The position numbers and the translations under genes are program-made. 61,534 nt of DNA. It comes from a bacterium HR34. Lineage in GTDB: Bacteria > Patescibacteriota > Minisyncoccia > Minisyncoccales > HRBIN34. Positions 11,419 through 55,556 of the stretch are shown here, one piece after another. Location of the stretch: assembly GCA_002923395.1 (NCBI GenBank), contig BEIK01000004.1, forward strand, positions 1 through 61,534. Reading direction: 5' to 3'. Every line of letters starts with the position of its first letter. Positions within the stretch are counted from its first letter, which is position 1. The notes below the pieces were generated by a model that worked only from the letters and a program-made list of their open reading frames with translations, made no database searches and had not been told where the DNA came from.

Positions 11419-11446
11419 CCAAACGTTCACGATCGTGAACGTTTGG
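11419..11446. repeat. 28-bp perfect palindrome, copy 1
   Basis: CCAAACGTTCACGATCGTGAACGTTTGG, flanked by tgct/ggca. Confidence 0.95.
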
Positions 11447-17357: not shown

Positions 17358-17595
17358 AAATATAATACCCTTTATTTTTTATCTTTTCTTCTATGTCTTT
17401 GGAGGCTTTTTCTATGTGGCAAAATTTACATTCATTTGACGACAATTCTTGCCCTTCTTCACCTTTAGTTTTTAGGTATTCATTTCCATATGCGATAACT
17501 TTTTCATAAGGAGTATTTTTCTCTACTATTATATCAAAGTGCATTATCCTGCCGTCTTTTCTTTTTACATAAGTATCGTAAACTGCTATTTCCAT
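17338..17595 (-). CDS. DUF2024-family protein
   Basis: VYDTYV.RKDG.IMHFDI, ECKFCH.E.A. Confidence 0.8.
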   Translation of the reverse strand: MEIAVYDTYVKRKDGRIMHFDIIVEKNTPYEKVIAYGNEYLKTKGEEGQELSSNECKFCHIEKASKDIEEKIKNKGYYIYEMENC

Positions 17596-17671
17596 ATTTT
17601 TGTTGATTTAATTTAAATTTATAATTAATATTTAATATTACAAATTTAATATTACAAAAAATTACAAAAAT

Positions 17672-18949
17672 ATGGAAGGGGAGAATAGTAGGTTTTACGA
17701 ATTACCATCAAAAGAAAGGGTTTCTGCGAAAAATGTAGAGGAGAAAATTAGGAATATAGAAGATGAGAGAGAATTGAGTAGGCTTTATAACGCTATTTCT
17801 TATTTTTTGCGTTATGGAATAGAATCTTTTTCAAGGGCTGTTGATTTATCTATTGTGGGGATTGAAAAACGGAAAGAATTTGAAAATTATAGAAGTTTAG
17901 ATGAATATTGTGCATCTTTTGGGTTAGATGATAAGCAAATTACTCGTTTGAAAAATGATTTAGCAGAAGAAGCAAAATTTATAATACCTCAATTTAAAAA
18001 TTTAGCCTATTTATATTTAAAAGGGGATTTAGAGGATTATTTAAAAAAAATTTTAAGTGTGTTATCACCTTATAAAAGTGAAAATGATGAAAAAATAGAG
18101 AAAAGGAGAATAGATGAGATTATATATTTAATAGAAAATTTTATTGAAGAAACGTTGCAAGATAAAAGTATAGATGAATTTGTAGGAAAGATCGATGATT
18201 TAGAATTTTATAAAAATGAAATCATCTTTTTGATATATACTACTTTTTTACGCATAAAAAGAGGTGAATTTGTATCTACCATCGCCGAAGATATGAGAAA
18301 TAAATTAATACAATTATCTATAGAAATAGTATCTTCAGAAAATCTACCGAATTATTTTTATACAAATAATTATTTTAATCTAAACAAAAAAGAAGTTAAA
18401 AGTTTTAAAAATTTTGTTTTGGAAACTGGAGTTATATCAGAAGATGAATGGGATGTTTTTTTAGAATTTTTTAATACCATATCTTTAGAGTATTGCAAGT
18501 ATATATATGAAAAGATTATATATAAAATTACCAAAAATTTGATTAATAAAGATATAGCATCCGCAATTTATTCATTCGATGAGAGTAAGATAGAAGAGTT
18601 GAAAGATGAGTTTGAAAAAATTTTTAATATTAATTTGAGAATTGAAAAATTTAATAAAAAAATTCCCGACAAGAAAGTAGACAATAGAGATGTTGTTTTA
18701 TTAAAACTAATATTGGAGCGTATTGTTGATGTTCTTATAATAAATTCTGTAAAATCTATAGTGGTGAAATATTTCCCAGAGGCGATAAATAAAGAATATG
18801 AAATTATACAAAATATAGAGGGAATACTTGCATCGCTTGAGCTTCCAAAAGATAAAGAACAAAATAAAAACGCATTTGAATATGGGTTATCTATATTAAA
18901 GGAAATTCAAAAACTTTACTTTGAAAATTATAATGAAGAAAAGTCATAA
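17672..18949 (+). CDS. Hypothetical protein
   Basis: 425-aa helical E/K-rich ORF. Confidence 0.7.
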   Translation: MEGENSRFYELPSKERVSAKNVEEKIRNIEDERELSRLYNAISYFLRYGIESFSRAVDLSIVGIEKRKEFENYRSLDEYCASFGLDDKQITRLKNDLAEEAKFIIPQFKNLAYLYLKGDLEDYLKKILSVLSPYKSENDEKIEKRRIDEIIYLIENFIEETLQDKSIDEFVGKIDDLEFYKNEIIFLIYTTFLRIKRGEFVSTIAEDMRNKLIQLSIEIVSSENLPNYFYTNNYFNLNKKEVKSFKNFVLETGVISEDEWDVFLEFFNTISLEYCKYIYEKIIYKITKNLINKDIASAIYSFDESKIEELKDEFEKIFNINLRIEKFNKKIPDKKVDNRDVVLLKLILERIVDVLIINSVKSIVVKYFPEAINKEYEIIQNIEGILASLELPKDKEQNKNAFEYGLSILKEIQKLYFENYNEEKS

Positions 18950-19866
18950 TATGGATTTTGGGGCTTCATAAAGCAAGCACTAGTTTTTTCAACCTTACTT
19001 AAGCGTGGGCCTTGTTTTATTTTTTCTAAGAGTTGTTCTAATTCTTTAATTTTCCCTTGCGCTACAACTTCAACAGAGCCGTTTTCCAAATTTTTTGCGT
19101 ATCCTTTTATGCCGTAAAAATCAGCCCATTTTTTTGTAAAAGCACGAAATCCAACACCTTGCACTCTTCCATATACATTAACCTTCATTTCTATTATACT
19201 TTCTTTAATATCTTCTATTTTTAAACTTCTTTCGATTGTAAAATTACCAACTGCAGTTCTTGTGAGTTCTTTTAAGTATCCGCCTGTTTTTAGTTTTTTA
19301 CCAATATCTCTCGCTAAACTTCTTATATAAGTTCCAGCAGAACACCAAACTTTTATTTTTAATATCGGAAAGTTATACTCTAAAATTTCTATTTTCTTTA
19401 TTTCAACTATCCTTTCTTTTTCTTTTAGCATTTTTTCAAGTTCTTCTTTGTTCTTTATTTTTCTCGCTAATTCATAAAGACGCTTGCCTTTTATTTTTAG
19501 CGCCGAAAATATTGGAGGGATTTGCCTTATTTTGCCTGTAAAATTATCTTGCAAAATCTCTTCTATTTCTTTTGAATATGGCTGTTTTTCAAAATTAACT
19601 TTTTCTTTTTTGCCTTCAATATCGTCTGTATCTGAAAACTCTCCAAGTTTGATAGTTGCCAGGTATTCTTTATCAGCATTTTTTAATATATTTTCTAAAA
19701 GTTTTGTGTATTGTCTTCCGACGCCAACAATCAGCAGACCATCTGCAAAAGGATCAAGCGTGCCACCATGCCCGACCTTTTCTTTTGGTAACATTCCTTT
19801 GATAAAATCTATTGCTTTTGCGCTTGATATGCCTTTTGGTTTATATAGCAAAATTATTCCCTCCAT
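18928..19866 (-). CDS. truB: tRNA pseudouridine-55 synthase fused to a C-terminal acylphosphatase
   Basis: KVGHGGTLDPFADG, PP.FSALKI.GKRLY, SAGTYIRSLARDIG, then GRVQGVGFR...G.A.N..NGSVE. Confidence 0.92.
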   Translation of the reverse strand: MEGIILLYKPKGISSAKAIDFIKGMLPKEKVGHGGTLDPFADGLLIVGVGRQYTKLLENILKNADKEYLATIKLGEFSDTDDIEGKKEKVNFEKQPYSKEIEEILQDNFTGKIRQIPPIFSALKIKGKRLYELARKIKNKEELEKMLKEKERIVEIKKIEILEYNFPILKIKVWCSAGTYIRSLARDIGKKLKTGGYLKELTRTAVGNFTIERSLKIEDIKESIIEMKVNVYGRVQGVGFRAFTKKWADFYGIKGYAKNLENGSVEVVAQGKIKELEQLLEKIKQGPRLSKVEKTSACFMKPQNPYYDFSSL

Positions 19867-19869
19867 ATT

Positions 19870-20835
19870 TTACTTTTTTATAAGTTTTTTAAAGTTTTCT
19901 ATTAAATCTACTTTTTCAGGATCTTTTTTATTTTTTACAGCCACTTTATAAGACAGCCAATCTGCTTTTATTATTAGTTCAAAGATATTTTTTATTCTGT
20001 TTTGTCCTATTTTTTCTTCTATTACAGGGAAGTTTTTATTTTTTAATATGCTTTTTAGAATTGACATTCTTTTTTGTATTCTTGGATGGTCTTTTTTATC
20101 TTTTATAAACACAAAGGCAAAATTTTCTGAAAGGTGTTTGTCGTATTTATTATAATTAAATCCTTCTATTTCATTGTGATTTAATTCTGGAAAATAGTTG
20201 CAAAAGGCAGGTATTTTGCCAGTTTCATTAAACTTTATTTTCCATACATAAGCCAACGGGAAATTTATTTTTGAAGCGTAGATGATGGGAATTTTATCTT
20301 TAATAATATTAAATTCTTTTCTGGTTTGCTTTTCTATTGAAATTGGATTTAATGATTTTGCAAGTTTTTTTAACTTTTGTTTTATTTTTGTTTGCCTTGT
20401 AAAAGAAAGAATGGCGATCAAAGACAGGCCTATTGCTACTCTTGGTTGCGTATCAACATCTGGCAGTTTTACAAACGGCACTTTGTTTTTTTGCGCGAGC
20501 TCTAGTAGTTTTCCACCCTTTGTAACTACAGCAAAATTAAGTTTTAATTTTTTACAGGTTTCAAACGACGATATTGTTTCTTCTGTATTACCAGAAAACG
20601 AACTTAATATTATCAACTTTTTTTTAAGTTCTGATATTTGCAGTTTTGGTAGTTTATAGTCTCGGTGAATTATTATCTGTGTTTCAGGGTCTATCATTTT
20701 TAAAAGCCATCCCGAAAGAGCCGATCCTCCCATGCCGCATAATATAAATTGATTCGCTTTTCTTAATTTATTTTTATTTTCTATTTCCGGTTCAAACAAA
20801 AATTGTTTTGGAAAATTTAAAAAAGATTGTTTCAT
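19870..20835 (-). CDS. Bifunctional phosphoglucose/phosphomannose isomerase (SIS)
   Basis: GMGGSA, SFSGNTEET, QPR, WK..FNETGK, PELNHN. Confidence 0.9.
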   Translation of the reverse strand: MKQSFLNFPKQFLFEPEIENKNKLRKANQFILCGMGGSALSGWLLKMIDPETQIIIHRDYKLPKLQISELKKKLIILSSFSGNTEETISSFETCKKLKLNFAVVTKGGKLLELAQKNKVPFVKLPDVDTQPRVAIGLSLIAILSFTRQTKIKQKLKKLAKSLNPISIEKQTRKEFNIIKDKIPIIYASKINFPLAYVWKIKFNETGKIPAFCNYFPELNHNEIEGFNYNKYDKHLSENFAFVFIKDKKDHPRIQKRMSILKSILKNKNFPVIEEKIGQNRIKNIFELIIKADWLSYKVAVKNKKDPEKVDLIENFKKLIKK

Positions 20836-20879
20836 AAGTTATAATTATTTATATCTCAATTATAGCACTTGTAAAACTT

Positions 20880-21311
20880 ATGAGAAAAGTTCTGAAACTG
20901 TTTAAAAAATACCTTGGTAAAAATAAATTAATGAGCGTTTGTACGCAAGGTGAAAAAGAGCCGTGGTGCGCTATTGTATTTTTCGCTTTTGATGATAATT
21001 TTAATTTTATTTTCGCTTCAAAAAAAGATACAATTCATGCTAAGAATATAATAAAAAATAAAAATGTTTCTCTTTCTATATACCAAGATTGGGGAAGACC
21101 TTGGAAGTTAAAGGGCGCACAAATAAAAGGCGTTGCAAAAGTATTAAGAGAAGAAAGTAAGGAGTATTTAAAATTTTATAATATCTTCAAAAAAAGATAC
21201 AAATGGATAGAAAAGTTTCCGGATCATAAAATTTTTATTGTAAAGCCAAAAGAAATATGGTGGACAAATCACGCTCTATTTAAAACAATTGAGAGGCAGA
21301 GAATTTTATGA
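20880..21311 (+). CDS. Pyridoxamine 5'-phosphate oxidase-like FMN-binding protein
   Basis: PWCA.VFF, S...T.H..NI..N..VS, G.QI.G.A split-barrel pattern. Confidence 0.8.
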   Translation: MRKVLKLFKKYLGKNKLMSVCTQGEKEPWCAIVFFAFDDNFNFIFASKKDTIHAKNIIKNKNVSLSIYQDWGRPWKLKGAQIKGVAKVLREESKEYLKFYNIFKKRYKWIEKFPDHKIFIVKPKEIWWTNHALFKTIERQRIL

Positions 21312-49711: not shown

Positions 49712-49782
49712 TGCGGGGTCGTCTAATGGTAGGACAGCGGCCTTTGGAGCCGTTAATCCTGGTTCGAGTCCAGGCCCCGCAG
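49712..49782 (+). tRNA. tRNA-Gln(TTG)
   Basis: TGCGGGG/CCCCGCA acceptor stem, GCGGC-CTTTGGA-GCCGT anticodon arm, GGTTCGAGTCC T-loop. Confidence 0.95.
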
Positions 49783-49840: not shown

Positions 49841-50627
49841 ATTACAAAACTAATAGAATTTAAAAATAAAAGAGGCGATATTTTAAGAGGCTTTTTGGTG
49901 AGTGGGAAAAAGAGTAGGAGAGAGCATGGTGTTATTTGTTTGCATGGTTTTGAAAGGACTTCTATAACAGAGAAGAAGTTTAAAACTATTTCAGATAGAT
50001 TGGCTTGCAATAATATTTCTTCATTCAGATTTGATTATGCTGGCTGCGGGATTTCAGACGGTGATTTTAGATATACCACAATTAACTCAATGAAAAATGA
50101 TTTTGAAAGAGCAGTAGAGTGTTCCAAAAAATTTCAAAGGTCAAGTATATTTAGGTTATTGCGCATAGTGTATCGGCATGCGTTGTTGCAAGTTGTGATA
50201 TCAGCGTTTTAATAAAATTGTGCTTATAGCGCCAGCCTTAAATCAAAAAGAACTTTTGAGATATTGATTTGTTAAATCTCAAAATAGCGATGTTGATATT
50301 AATTGGGATAATTATAAAAAGTTTGTAGTGGAAAAAGAATTTGAAAAGTTTTGCAAAATAAAACAAAGAATGACAAAATTAAATTATATAAACAACGATT
50401 ATTTTTTAGAAAATAAAGACAAAGGTTATTCTTTTAGTTTCAAAGATAAAGATTTTGAAAATAAAATTTTGCATATTCATGGAAATGCAGATGGTATTGT
50501 TAGCTTGAAAGTTTAAATATAGGTTTTAAAAATAAAATTATTGTAAAGAGCGGAGACCATGATCTTGAAAAGCCAAGATATGCTAAAACAGTGGATTTTG
50601 AAATGTACGCGGTTTGTAATAAAATAG
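49841..50627 (+). pseudogene. Alpha/beta hydrolase pseudogene
   Basis: LHGF and RFDYAGCG.SDGDF, then AHSVS, IAPA, HGNAD and GDHD spread over different frames with internal stops. Confidence 0.8.
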
Positions 50628-50879: not shown

Positions 50880-51470
50880 ATGGCTAAGAAAAATAATTTT
50901 GAAAATATAGTTGATTTTTTCTTTGAGCTCGGTACTCTAAGAAAAGTAATAAGGGCACACCAGCAGGCGTTGTTTGGAAACGACGCTTCTGACAATATAG
51001 CGTCTCATACATTTAGAGTGTGTTTTATAGGATATTTTTTGGCGCAGATAGAAAAAGCAGATGCTTTTAAAGTTGTGATGATGTGTTTAGTGCATGATAT
51101 TCCAGAAATAAGGACAGGCGATCAAAATAATATTCATAAAAAATATGTGAAAGCATTTGAAGATGAGGTTATAAATGATCAATTAAACGGACTTCCTTTT
51201 TCAGAATTTCTTAAAAATTTGTTCTTTGAATATGAAGAAAGAAAAACAAAAGAAGCAAAAATAGCAAAAGACGCTGATATTTTAGATGAAATTTTTCTGT
51301 TAAAAGAGTATTCTGCTACTGGCAACAAAGAAGCCGAAAGATGGCTTAAAAATCATTCTCATAGTAAATTTTTAAACACGAAAACAGCAAAAGAGATTTA
51401 TAAGGTTATTATAAAAAAGAATATCTCTGATTGGTGGAAAACCTTCGCAACCTTCAACAAGAGAAGGTGA
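50880..51470 (+). CDS. HD-domain phosphohydrolase (YfbR/HDDC2-like)
   Basis: R.H, ASHTFR, HDIPE.RTGD, KDAD..D. Confidence 0.88.
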   Translation: MAKKNNFENIVDFFFELGTLRKVIRAHQQALFGNDASDNIASHTFRVCFIGYFLAQIEKADAFKVVMMCLVHDIPEIRTGDQNNIHKKYVKAFEDEVINDQLNGLPFSEFLKNLFFEYEERKTKEAKIAKDADILDEIFLLKEYSATGNKEAERWLKNHSHSKFLNTKTAKEIYKVIIKKNISDWWKTFATFNKRR

Positions 51471-51473
51471 TAA

Positions 51474-52643
51474 TTACTTTTTAAACTTTTTCTCAGCTTC
51501 TTTTCTTATTTTTTCTTTAAGTTGCGTTAGATCTCTTTTATAATTGCGCGTAGTGATTTTGGCGAATATTTCATCTCCTGAGAAGAACCTTATAGAGCAG
51601 GACATTTCAAAAAACTGAGCCCTTCCAGCAGCGTTTCTGTCTTTTACTATTCTTAAAAATATATCTTTTACAGAATTCATTTTGTTTAGTGATTTTGCAA
51701 TTGCTTGGAGTTTGTTAAAAACGAAATCAATATCTTGTTCTGGTATTTCGGCTTGATTTCTTATATCTATTTTAATAACTTCTTCTGGCTTTAATTGAGT
51801 TAAAGCTTCTATTACATTTCTAATTGAAATTATCCCTGTTGGTTTTTCTTGTTCGTCCGTTAGAACTATGCTTTTGTAATCTGATGTTAAAAGTCTTTCT
51901 ATTATTTTTTCTATTGGCTCTTTTTCGTGAATATGGAGAGGAGTTTTTGCTATAGCACTTATTGGAAATTCTAATCTTCCTGTTAGTTCAAAGCTAAACA
52001 TAGAACTTTTAGCATTCCTAGCGTTGGGTGATTTTGATGTACCGCCTGTTTTTACTCTTTGTTTTGTTGTTGGTTTTGTTAAGTATGGGAATATGTCTTT
52101 TCTTGTTACAATTCCTTTTAATGTTCCGTATTTGTTAACAAGCAGAACTCTTGAAGCGTTTTCATTTTTCATAATTTGATAAACTTTTTTCGCAGTGGTG
52201 GTAGTTTGCACAATAACAGGTTTCTGGATTTTTATATATTTGCCTATAACACCAATTAAGTCGCTGTCTAAAATAAACTTCATAATACCATCTGCTGTTA
52301 TTAGATAATTTGCATTTTCTCCTTCAAAAATAGGGAAAGATATTGTTCTATGGGCTAACATGAGTTCTGCAACTTTTGTTAGAAGAGTATTTGGAGTGAT
52401 GTTTGGAGGCTTTATCATTGCTGATTTTACTTGCGCTGTGAAAGGCAGCCTTGATTTAAATAGCGCCAGATATGGTGATACTATCCCGATTATGTTTTTA
52501 TTTTCATCTAAAACTAAAACCGATTCATGCGAACTTGTTGTTCTTGATAGAGCCCTGTCTAAACTATCTTCAGGATAGCACGTTGGAGTTTTTTTAGTTA
52601 TCGGCTCCAAATAATTTTTGATATCTCTTATTTTTATGTCCAT
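51474..52643 (-). CDS. Four CBS domains + C-terminal HPF/RaiA-like domain
   Basis: CBS motifs (GIVS, GIVTRKDI, GIISIRNV); the last ~100 aa show a beta-alpha-beta-beta-beta-alpha pattern ending in a basic helix. Confidence 0.7.
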   Translation of the reverse strand: MDIKIRDIKNYLEPITKKTPTCYPEDSLDRALSRTTSSHESVLVLDENKNIIGIVSPYLALFKSRLPFTAQVKSAMIKPPNITPNTLLTKVAELMLAHRTISFPIFEGENANYLITADGIMKFILDSDLIGVIGKYIKIQKPVIVQTTTTAKKVYQIMKNENASRVLLVNKYGTLKGIVTRKDIFPYLTKPTTKQRVKTGGTSKSPNARNAKSSMFSFELTGRLEFPISAIAKTPLHIHEKEPIEKIIERLLTSDYKSIVLTDEQEKPTGIISIRNVIEALTQLKPEEVIKIDIRNQAEIPEQDIDFVFNKLQAIAKSLNKMNSVKDIFLRIVKDRNAAGRAQFFEMSCSIRFFSGDEIFAKITTRNYKRDLTQLKEKIRKEAEKKFKK

Positions 52644-52931
52644 ATTTTTGATTGATTAAATTAGATTGTAATTTGGTTTTAATAATAGATATTTTATCAA
52701 ATAAATTCAATTTAGCAAAATTAAATTACAAGTTGTGTTAAAAGCAGTATTTTAGCAAATATTTGAGTAGGACAGCCCTACCGACGTCATGTCGGCTAGG
52801 GCAGGTTCCTGACAATATATAAGTAACAAGCCAATAATACAGAAGTCTGCCTTCTGTACAAACTTTTTTAAGTTTAAAAATTGATATTTAATAAAATAAT
52901 CAAGATTAATTGCTCAAACATAGAGCCCGTT

Positions 52932-52959
52932 CCAAACGTTCACGATCGTGAACGTTTGG
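52932..52959. repeat. 28-bp perfect palindrome, copy 4
   Basis: Identical core followed by GGCAATAT. Confidence 0.95.
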
Positions 52960-53186
52960 GGCAATATGTTTTCTAATCTTTCTTGAAAAATTTAGTTTTA
53001 TTTTATTTCCAACTCTGTTTATGTTGTTATGTTCGCAAATAAAGTGCTATAGCATTTTATTTCTAAAGTGTAGTTTGGCGAAAAATTTTATTAATTTTTT
53101 TGCTTACCTTTTTAATTATTTAATTAATACTTTTTAAACCGCGTTTAAAACCTCAAAACAATTCTTGCCTTAGTTTTTTGTTTTTG

Positions 53187-53818: not shown

Positions 53819-54034
53819 ATGGGATTTTTTGACCAAGCAAAATTGTTATCAAATTTAATTAAAAATATGGATCCTTCGCAGATGAAAGAGTTGATGGAGC
53901 AGGCAAAACAAAGTCAGAAAATGATGGAGGAGATAGTAAGAAGAATAGTAAAAGAAGAGTTAGATAAAGTACTTTCTGTGTACGCGAAAAAAGATTGGGT
54001 AGAAGAAAATTTTAAAAAGAAAAATGAAAGCTAG
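53819..54034 (+). CDS. Small hypothetical protein
   Basis: 71-aa helical ORF overlapping the start of the ftsZ-like gene. Confidence 0.6.
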   Translation: MGFFDQAKLLSNLIKNMDPSQMKELMEQAKQSQKMMEEIVRRIVKEELDKVLSVYAKKDWVEENFKKKNES

Positions 54035-55556
54035 AAGAAAAATAAAAACAAAAAAGGTTAAAGTTTTACCTAAGAAAGGTAAAAAAGTAAAATTAAAAGA
54101 TTCTTCAGAATTGGAATTTGTAAGACTACCTTATATTAGGTTTATTGGTGTTGGCGGTGGGGCAGGTTCTATTTTAGATGAAGTGTCAAAATATATAAGC
54201 AAAAATCCTAAAATAAAATCAAAGGTTGAGTTTTATTGCATAAATTCAGACAGGCAAGCCTTGAAATCTTTATCTTCAAGGGTAAGAAAGGTTTTGATTG
54301 GTGAGAAAATCACAGGGGGTTTTGGAACCGGAGGAGATACAAAACTTGCAGAACAAATTGCAAATCAAGATATTAAAAAGATAGAACAGGTAATTGATAA
54401 TAGAGATTTTTTTGTGGTTGTTAGTTGTTTGGGAGGTGGTTTCAGTAGCGGCGCTTTACCAGTTTTGTTAAAGAATATAAAAGAAAAAAAGAAAAAATCA
54501 ATTGGTATTTTTACTATGCCATTTGCTTTTGAGGGCCAAAAAAGAATGACAGTTGCAAAAAAGGCGTTAAATGAGGCAAAGGATTTCGTGAATGCCTTCA
54601 CGCCTATATACAACGAGAAAATATTCGATTTTATAGACAAAAATACTCCTTTAACAATGGCTTTTTCAATGATTAACAGAAAATTGGCAGAAAATCTAGA
54701 AGGATTTTTGGAGATGATTTATTTGCCTGGGTTAATAAACATAGACTTTGCAGATTTAAACACAACAGTTAGCGGAACTGGGCAATTGTTTTATTTATAC
54801 TCAATAGTTTTTGATGATATGGCGAGTTTAGAAAAGTTTTCTGAATCTTCTTTTTTTGTAAAAATTAACAAATATTCTTTACAGTCTCACGAAAAATTTG
54901 TTCCCGAAAAGATTCTTTTTAATATTACTGCCGACGAATCTTTAAAACTTTATGATGTAAGTAGTATAAGTAACATAATAATCAGAGAAAACCCAAGGGC
55001 AAAAGTTATCTTTGGGATTTCTTATAATAAAAAAATGAAAAGTAAAGTTAGATTAACAATTATTTTAGTTGGCAGGTTAAAAGAAGTACTCAATCAGGCT
55101 GAAAAGAAAAAAGTTGAGATTATTTCTCAAAATAGTGGTGAAAATTTAGATACAGCGAAAAACAAAAAGGAATCCAACGGTGCTTCAAAAATAGAAAAGG
55201 TTGAAAAAACAAAAAGTAAAAAGCAAGTAGACCAAAAAGTGAAAAGGAAAAAAGCGAAAAACAAAAAAAACCAAGACAAAAAAACAGCGAAAAAAGTAAA
55301 GGTTAAAAAAAACAAGGTTGGTGACAAAAAGGAAATAAAAAATAAAACAGCGTCTATTAAAAGAACGTCTAAGAAAGATTTATTTCAAAAACCAGAAGCT
55401 AAAATAAATAAATCTATAATACAGAAGAAAAGGAGAACACCTTTAGATGTAAAAGAAATAAGAGAATTAGAAAACAAAACAATAGAAGAGCAGGAAAACA
55501 AATGGGACATACCCGCTTTTTTATTAAATAACGAAGTTAAAAAAGATGATAAATAA
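54024..55556 (+). CDS. ftsZ: Divergent FtsZ-family protein with a Lys-rich tail
   Basis: GVGGG, NSD.Q.L, G.GTGGD, GGGFSSG (degenerate signature), GLINIDFAD, C-terminal DIPAFL. Confidence 0.85.
   Translation: MKARRKIKTKKVKVLPKKGKKVKLKDSSELEFVRLPYIRFIGVGGGAGSILDEVSKYISKNPKIKSKVEFYCINSDRQALKSLSSRVRKVLIGEKITGGFGTGGDTKLAEQIANQDIKKIEQVIDNRDFFVVVSCLGGGFSSGALPVLLKNIKEKKKKSIGIFTMPFAFEGQKRMTVAKKALNEAKDFVNAFTPIYNEKIFDFIDKNTPLTMAFSMINRKLAENLEGFLEMIYLPGLINIDFADLNTTVSGTGQLFYLYSIVFDDMASLEKFSESSFFVKINKYSLQSHEKFVPEKILFNITADESLKLYDVSSISNIIIRENPRAKVIFGISYNKKMKSKVRLTIILVGRLKEVLNQAEKKKVEIISQNSGENLDTAKNKKESNGASKIEKVEKTKSKKQVDQKVKRKKAKNKKNQDKKTAKKVKVKKNKVGDKKEIKNKTASIKRTSKKDLFQKPEAKINKSIIQKKRRTPLDVKEIRELENKTIEEQENKWDIPAFLLNNEVKKDDK

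Follow-up and report, generated by a model that had tools for sequence, protein, structure and literature searches.

Archaeal ribosome hibernation factors that join CBS domains to an HPF domain have been described as Hib or HibA in Pyrococcus abyssi and Thermococcus (PMC13324472; bioRxiv 10.1101/2025.10.11.676729) and as AHA (AMPKgamma-HPF from Archaea; HVO_2384 of Haloferax volcanii) in an EMBO J paper of 2026 (PMC13728122). [quoted passage not shown] HibA/AHA was presented in 2025–26 as the main archaeal route to ribosome sleep, and as possibly connecting HPF of bacteria with the energy sensing of eukaryotic AMPK. Here we describe a gene of similar design from a bacterium. It occupies positions 51474 to 52643, on the minus strand, of a 61,534-nucleotide stretch of DNA, referred to below as the window (contig BEIK01000004.1 of assembly GCA_002923395.1, bacterium HR34), and encodes a 389-residue protein with an ATG start, in which four CBS repeats are followed by an HPF/RaiA-like domain.

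On the combined weight of sequence profiles and structure models, we consider that this gene probably encodes a bacterial member, from the Candidate Phyla Radiation (CPR, or Patescibacteria), of the HibA/AHA ribosome hibernation factors. This gene family has been described before, and the EMBO J paper states in a single sentence that it occurs in CPR/Patescibacteria (PMC13728122). Four things we did not find in the published accounts (PMC13728122; PMC13324472; bioRxiv 2025): the exclusion between this fusion and canonical HPF, the empty slot where hpf would lie between murB and secA, the size of the CPR clade, and the rarity of the fusion within the phylum.

Domain architecture and fold

A Pfam scan of the protein matched CBS (PF00571) in four stretches (E 2.4e-29) and gave nothing significant beyond residue 285. 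AlphaFold2, run on the full-length protein with a 133-sequence alignment, gave a model with a mean predicted local distance difference test (pLDDT) of 93.0 and a predicted template modelling score (pTM) of 0.85, containing four β-α-β-β-α CBS units (residues ~4–63, 70–126, 135–189 and 227–283). The features of the gene are as follows, with the evidence for each in brackets.

51474..52643, minus strand: whole gene, stop codon included, of the four-CBS plus HPF/RaiA-like (HibA/AHA) type (list of open reading frames (ORFs), family-profile alignment to P. abyssi HibA, AlphaFold2 pLDDT 93)
52455..52634, minus strand: CBS1, residues ~4–63 (Pfam CBS, AlphaFold2 secondary structure; G53 in 131/133 family members)
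52266..52436, minus strand: CBS2, residues ~70–126, ribose-phosphate motif degenerate (Pfam, AlphaFold2)
52077..52241, minus strand: CBS3, residues ~135–189, ligand motif canonical, G-h-h-T-R-x-D (G177, T180, R181, D183) (best Pfam CBS stretch, 140–188)
51966..52076, minus strand: long basic CBS3–CBS4 loop, residues 190–226, placed like the 'PTC loop' of HibA and 'loop 3' of AHA (AlphaFold2, profile alignments)
51795..51965, minus strand: CBS4, residues ~227–283, motif P268-x-G270-I-I-S273-x-R275-N276 (Pfam, AlphaFold2)
51477..51782, minus strand: C-terminal HPF/RaiA-like domain, residues 288–389, net charge +7 (AlphaFold2, Foldseek, profile comparisons)
52682..52718, minus strand: weak candidate sigma-70-type promoters, 40–75 nucleotides 5' of the ATG (TTGCTA-16-TAAAAT with TG; TTGAAT-17-TATTAT) (consensus scan alone)

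The C-terminal domain is modelled with strands at residues 291–296, 325–336, 342–353 and 358–365 and helices at 302–322 and 372–388. The order is thus β-α-β-β-β-α, which is the order of HPF/RaiA. With the full-length model as query, Foldseek matched nothing but CBS tetrads (SriA on the ribosome of M. acetivorans, E 1e-16; MJ1225; AMPK gamma; Dri), and the C-terminal domain was therefore modelled and searched by itself. The isolated domain was again modelled with confidence (pLDDT 93.1, pTM 0.82). Its 14 best matches in the PDB were all ribosome-bound chains of HPF, RaiA or YfiA, or of plastid pY, with probability 1.00, template modelling (TM) scores of 0.59–0.77 and root-mean-square deviations of 2.2–4.0 Å over about 100 columns; the matches that followed were unrelated folds with TM scores below 0.3. 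An ACT or ferredoxin-like reading of the domain was ruled out by the β-α-β-β-β-α topology and by the fact that all the top matches are HPF.

A first-pass annotation of this DNA, made from the sequence alone, had proposed the HPF/RaiA fold for residues 288–389 and had named AlphaFold plus Foldseek as a way to check it. Since all 14 top matches are of HPF type, that test comes out in favour of the fold, in silico. Other elements of the same annotation hold as well: the four CBS repeats appear in both Pfam and AlphaFold2, the insert between CBS3 and CBS4 is basic, the boundaries given for the C-terminal domain (51477–51782) are correct, and its final helix is strongly basic, the net charge of the domain (+7) being equal to the family median. 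The archaeal CBS plus HPF hibernation factor that it named Hib corresponds to the published HibA/AHA (PMC13324472; PMC13728122).

The loop between CBS3 and CBS4, TKPTTKQRVKTGGTSKSPNARNAKSSMFSFELTGRLEF (residues 189–226 as counted), has 38 residues and a net charge of +6, compared with family medians of 31 and +2. AlphaFold2 models it with low confidence (residues 190–226, pLDDT 50–67). The start of the loop is conserved among the 133 family members aligned, with P191 in 107, K/R194 in 105 and R196 in 103. The ligand motifs of CBS3 and CBS4 are also conserved in this alignment (G177 in 118/133, S/T180 in 111/133, R181 in 111/133 and D183 in 125/133 for CBS3; P268 in 125/133, G270 in 101/133, S/T273 in 127/133 and D/N276 in 87/133 for CBS4), unlike those of CBS1 and CBS2, which are degenerate. 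This pattern matches the location of AMP or ATP at the CBS3/CBS4 interface in AHA and HibA.

Family, distribution and origin

Besides the protein itself, a word-indexed homologue search yielded a single relative (P0002, 36% identity). The family is too divergent for such a search, and a profile built from these two sequences was therefore searched exhaustively against 1.84 billion cluster representatives. This gave 2154 matches at E<=1e-3 and 155 cluster representatives (50% identity) at E<=1e-30. Among the best 150, almost every match has a length of 360–410 residues and extends from end to end, including the C-terminal domain. Two family alignments were made, one of 133 full-length members (A2) and one of 45 C-terminal domains (A3).

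The structures 9SR9 (HibA) and 9L96 were absent from the Foldseek matches, and were compared by sequence profile instead. Against P. abyssi HibA (9sr9_H), the A2 profile aligned in one colinear stretch, from profile positions 7–378 to positions 7–369 of the 392-residue chain (E 2.7e-52), with the CBS3–CBS4 loop aligned to the long loop of HibA. Against 9l96_a, an acidic, haloarchaeal-looking chain of 406 residues, it aligned from 15–380 to 10–380 (E 6.5e-38); the window sequence taken singly matched the same chain over the CBS part only (E 1.5e-9), again with the two long loops aligned. Dri and Sri scored lower and matched in their CBS parts only. In the phylum of Thermococcus, the A2 profile has full-length matches in 93 of 121 genomes.

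For the C-terminal domain, 34 of the 45 aligned family members match Pfam PF02482 (Ribosomal_S30AE), with a best E of 1e-6. The leading PDB matches of the A3 profile are chains of HPF, protein Y and RaiA (E 1.7e-3 to 0.06), together with the C-terminus of 9sr9_H. A hidden Markov model of the fusion C-terminal domains matched one of 21 canonical CPR HPFs, and profile–profile comparison was needed. With hhalign, these domains align almost without gaps to the C-terminal domains of archaeal HibA (probability 97.5, E 6e-12, score 58.5, 98 columns), and with insertions and deletions to the 21 canonical HPFs of the same bacterial phylum (probability 95.7, E 9e-9, score 45.2). The full-length alignment and the C-terminal comparison together demonstrate that the whole gene, and not just its design, is shared with HibA/AHA.

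We searched 401 evenly sampled genomes of the phylum for the fusion, and screened 301 genomes for both the fusion and canonical HPF. The fusion occurs in 9 of the 401, in seven family codes, whereas canonical PF02482 occurs in 214 of the 301. A stand-alone HPF is found in none of the 9 fusion carriers, compared with 213 of 294 non-carriers (72%; Fisher p = 1.5e-4 in the 301-genome subset). Two carriers, G053 and G488, have PF02482 matches, which lie inside the fusion gene itself; the other seven have no match at E<=10. Within the class to which the window belongs, every sampled genome has canonical PF02482 except two fusion carriers, one of which is the genome of the window and the other G053. 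In the genome of the window, a six-frame search gave no PF02482 match at E<=1, and RsfS is also absent. Mutual exclusion of this kind is the pattern expected of a functional substitute.

In the order to which the window belongs, hpf occurs without the fusion in three genomes, and the fusion without hpf in two. Of the three hpf-bearing genomes, two have hpf between murB and secA. In the genome of the window the same two genes (contig C3, murB at 17424–18356 and secA at 18708–21149) are separated by a 351-bp spacer, in which no hpf remnant was detected (best tblastn E 0.46). The slot is thus empty, and in this genome and the few other fusion-bearing CPR lineages the fusion appears to stand in for the missing bacterial HPF. 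The spacer (C3:18357–18707) does have a tiny GTG-started ORF for a Lys/Thr-rich peptide of about 30 residues (VATKKKTTKKSTKKTAKKSTKKKTTRKKK), possibly a small basic protein, and behind this ORF a clean hairpin terminator (CCCCGAC-ATAAAA-GTCGGGG and a run of T).

A FastTree phylogeny was calculated from 149 sequences: 132 representatives, 7 from genomes of the phylum and 10 archaeal, the last being from the phylum of Thermococcus except for one haloarchaeal-looking sequence from the PDB. It has no outgroup. The 10 archaeal sequences are separated from the other 139 by a long branch with 100% support. All 132 representatives share a side with the known CPR sequences, and the latter span the deepest split of that side; in the two family contigs inspected, the neighbouring genes are bacterial, sortase among them. 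This points to a CPR clade of fusion proteins that is old and sizeable. The window protein groups with the copy from a genome of the same order, within a 10-member clade (99% support), on a terminal branch of 1.11 compared with a median of 0.66.

The first-pass annotation had considered the gene possibly acquired from archaea. This agrees with the EMBO J paper, in which the Patescibacteria sequences are embedded in the archaeal AHA cluster and transfer into bacteria is favoured (PMC13728122). Our own tree does not add to it: because its archaeal sampling is narrow and it has no outgroup, it gives no direction and cannot say whether the CPR sequences nest within Archaea. The gene looks resident in its genome rather than recently acquired, given its ordinary GC content (0.295–0.306 locally, 0.27–0.34 across the window) and its grouping with the same-order copy. 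A recent genomic island was ruled out because of the ordinary GC.

Proposed mechanism and alternative explanations

By homology with the archaeal cryo-electron microscopy structures, the N-terminal CBS tetrad of the window protein would occupy the vacant tRNA sites of the 50S subunit, with the long basic CBS3–CBS4 loop reaching into the PTC. The HPF-like domain would bind the same 30S site as bacterial HPF. As a result, an idle 70S ribosome would be locked, silenced and protected. For the conserved ligand motifs of CBS3 and CBS4, the most likely ligands are adenine nucleotides, of which archaea prefer AMP, and such binding would tie the availability or affinity of the factor to the energy state of the cell.

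Several observations weigh against this reading. The last helix of the window protein reads ...KEKIRKEAEKKFKK (IRKEAEKKFKK), where its relatives and canonical HPFs have I-E-K/R-Q-x-R-R; the Gln of this motif, kept in 12 of 13 close relatives, is lost. The C-terminal domain of the window protein is itself below Pfam detection, with no PF02482 match even at E<=10. Characterised HibA/AHA members are all archaeal, the bacterial ones being known from sequence alone. In P. abyssi HibA, AMP and ATP had no clear effect on ribosome binding in vitro (PMC13324472), which makes 'energy gating' a hypothesis even in archaea. HibA also contacts an extended loop of uL16 and the C-terminal tail of uS19, both absent from bacteria (PMC13324472), and an identical mode of binding to the bacterial ribosome cannot therefore be assumed. 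The exclusion between fusion and canonical HPF rests on about seven families rather than nine independent events, since f69 and f95 each account for two carriers, and in at least one of the families, f41, some members have neither gene. Finally, a search of public sequencing runs found no RNA run that carries the gene.

Some of these points bear on three other explanations. One is that the protein is a CBS-tetrad regulator acting off the ribosome, for example on transcription, like HhpR, or as a nucleotide-dependent partner of another protein, with the HPF-like domain reused as an RNA- or protein-binding module. The best NCBIfam match is indeed HhpR (NF053603), a CBS-tetrad transcription regulator with a long CBS3–CBS4 loop; pull-downs in Thermococcales recovered HibA together with proteins of replication and recombination; and the conserved Gln motif is lost from the final helix of the window protein. 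The HhpR match, however, reaches 42.1 bits against a cut-off of 520, covers generic CBS repeats only, and concerns a protein that has no HPF domain. The window protein is colinear with HibA over its whole length, and the fusion excludes canonical HPF as a substitute would. We consider a role off the ribosome very unlikely. A decaying or neofunctionalised copy, in which the family is of HibA type but this orthologue no longer silences ribosomes, would account for the long terminal branch (1.11 vs 0.66), for the missing I-E-K-Q-x-R-R helix motif, and for a C-terminal domain that is the one tested member to miss PF02482 altogether. Against decay, the ORF is intact and the AlphaFold2 model confident throughout, the helix is still strongly basic in a domain whose charge equals the family median, the loop and the CBS3 and CBS4 motifs are conserved, and the protein is the sole detectable factor of HPF or RsfS type in a 579-kb genome. 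We rate this explanation as very unlikely too, if anything slightly more so.

The least likely of the three, for which we see hardly any room, is a convergent fusion inside CPR of a bacterial HPF and a bacterial CBS tetrad, similar to HibA in design and not in descent. There are precedents for such an event, as bacteria have repeatedly fused a truncated HPF to stress domains, CBS included, and HPF isoforms fused to CBS domains are mentioned in the same preprint (bioRxiv 10.1101/2025.11.04.686544); the long branch between all 139 non-archaeal sequences and the 10 archaeal ones would also fit. However, the domain order is that of HibA, with the tetrad first and HPF last, whereas derivatives of long HPF have HPF first. 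The loop is at the same position between CBS3 and CBS4, the alignment with HibA is a single stretch (E 2.7e-52), the C-terminal profile scores higher against archaeal HibA domains (58.5, nearly gapless) than against canonical CPR HPFs (45.2, with indels), and in the EMBO J paper the CPR sequences fall within the AHA cluster (PMC13728122). We therefore retain membership of the HibA/AHA family as the probable reading. A broader proposal is that the CPR proteins form an old and diverse bacterial HibA/AHA clade (at least ~140 clusters at 50% identity), that they displaced HPF in several Patescibacteria lineages, and that they work on a bacterial ribosome with neither uL16 loop nor uS19 tail; to this we would give even odds.

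Genomic setting and comparison with known systems

The first-pass annotation had taken the host for a CPR bacterium, and the genome agrees. The assembly comprises 579 kb in 22 contigs and is rated 100% complete. It lacks uL30, which was detected in all 14 control genomes, and it encodes DnaX and FtsZ of bacterial type beside the CBS–HPF gene; the sample of its phylum spans more than 120 families, with genomes all of 0.5–2.1 Mb. These features fit a bacterium with the hallmarks of CPR/Patescibacteria. A single public run carries the gene (73% of sampled words), a 2018 DNA metagenome of hot springs, a habitat in which HibA-bearing thermophilic archaea would also live.

The neighbours of the gene are bacterial housekeeping genes. 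On its 3' side, and convergent with it, is an HD-domain gene (HD_3, or YfbR-like 5'-deoxynucleotidase; 50880–51470, plus strand). Only 3 nucleotides separate the two stop codons, too few to fit terminators. An HD-domain gene is also found in the contig of the relative P0002, where it lies two genes downstream (L014, 2656–3339), and the presence of such a gene near the fusion in both contigs could be chance or a link to nucleotide metabolism. Beyond the HD gene lie dnaX and a tRNA (49712–49782). The tRNA is followed by two ORFs on the plus strand (49895–50212 and 50328–50516; 105 and 62 residues), the first with a weak match to Hydrolase_4 (α/β hydrolase), which look like fragments left by one disrupted hydrolase gene. 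The genes for inorganic pyrophosphatase and FtsZ (ftsZ, 54024–55556, plus strand) flank the fusion on its other side; the 510-residue FtsZ has an extremely Lys-rich extension of about 150 residues past FtsZ_C, with KKxK repeats. In the same-order genome G053 (locus L004, G053:C10, 1498–4099), the fusion is directly downstream of fmt (methionyl-tRNA formyltransferase) and efp (elongation factor P) on the same strand, which is a translation-related neighbourhood.

Upstream of the gene, the consensus scan found 14 promoter-like sites, compared with 8.4 +/- 2.8 in shuffled sequence. The 610 bp upstream hold three palindromes (52929–52962, 52838–52858 and ~52773–52806). One has 15 pairs, GTTCCAAACGTTCACGATCGTGAACGTTTGGGGC, and is a copy of a dispersed 28-bp palindrome found at 11419, 36865 and 44895. 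The next is a hairpin of 8 pairs, and the last, also a hairpin (CCCTAGCCGAC...GTCGGTAGGG), is rich in GC, which is unusual for a genome of 30% GC.

A bacterial member of HibA/AHA that apparently replaces HPF would amount to a natural experiment on whether a two-subunit clamp, with HPF on the 30S subunit and the tetrad and its loop in the PTC, works on bacterial ribosomes. These are far easier to handle than archaeal systems, so that the protein is directly testable. For CPR biology, it bears on how episymbionts of about 600 kb, here from a hot-spring community, may park their ribosomes without host-supplied energy. If there is indeed an old CPR clade that displaced HPF, the mechanism of an HPF anchor plus a CBS-tetrad plug of the PTC would be independent of the domain of life, and movement of the fusion from CPR to Archaea would also be possible, rather than the reverse.

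The closest described system is HibA (P. abyssi PAB0961 and Thermococcus; PDB 9SR9–9SRF and 9T7H; Nat Commun 2026). The two proteins have the same order of CBS tetrad, CBS3–CBS4 loop and C-terminal HPF/RaiA domain, and almost the same length (389 residues in the window protein, 392 in HibA). Between HibA and the window family, the C-terminal domains align almost without gaps, and the CBS3 and CBS4 ligand motifs are conserved where HibA binds AMP or ATP. Sequence identity to HibA is low (single-protein phmmer E 5e-6), and the last helix of the window protein lacks the ERQ motif, unlike that of HibA. The host of HibA is an archaeon, whereas that of the window protein is a bacterium whose ribosome has neither the uL16 loop nor the uS19 tail. 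HibA/AHA is present in 47% of archaeal genomes, and the fusion in only about 2% of those of the window's phylum. AHA belongs to the same family as HibA, and the CPR set appears larger than the 'small number' given for it, with 155 representatives at E<=1e-30.

Bacterial HPF, RaiA (YfiA, pY) and long HPF (PF02482) have the same β-α-β-β-β-α fold and detectable homology to the C-terminal domain of the window protein. They differ in that the HPF domain of the window protein is C-terminal, behind a CBS tetrad of 285 residues, and the dimerisation domain of long HPF is absent; the family domain also has indels relative to canonical CPR HPFs. The anti-phage CBS protein DS-11 (NF053863) was rejected as a relative, like HhpR, since its NCBIfam match reaches 41.3 bits against a cut-off of 260 and covers generic CBS repeats only.

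The remaining comparisons concern the tetrad. Dri (Pyrobaculum calidifontis, 9E6Q and 9E7F) and SriA–D (Methanosarcina acetivorans, 9ZNF–9ZNI) are CBS-tetrad hibernation factors that have no HPF domain, and their tetrads resemble that of the window protein (Foldseek E 1e-16 for SriA and 1.7e-12 for Dri). The long CBS3–CBS4 loop of Dri also enters the PTC, although Dri has two tetrads and an opposite orientation at the PTC. AMPK gamma and MJ1225 share the CBS-tetrad fold (Foldseek E 1e-13 to 5e-15), and their nucleotide sites 3 and 4 correspond to the motifs conserved in the window family. They are, however, kinase regulators or stand-alone sensors, with neither a ribosome-binding domain nor a PTC loop.

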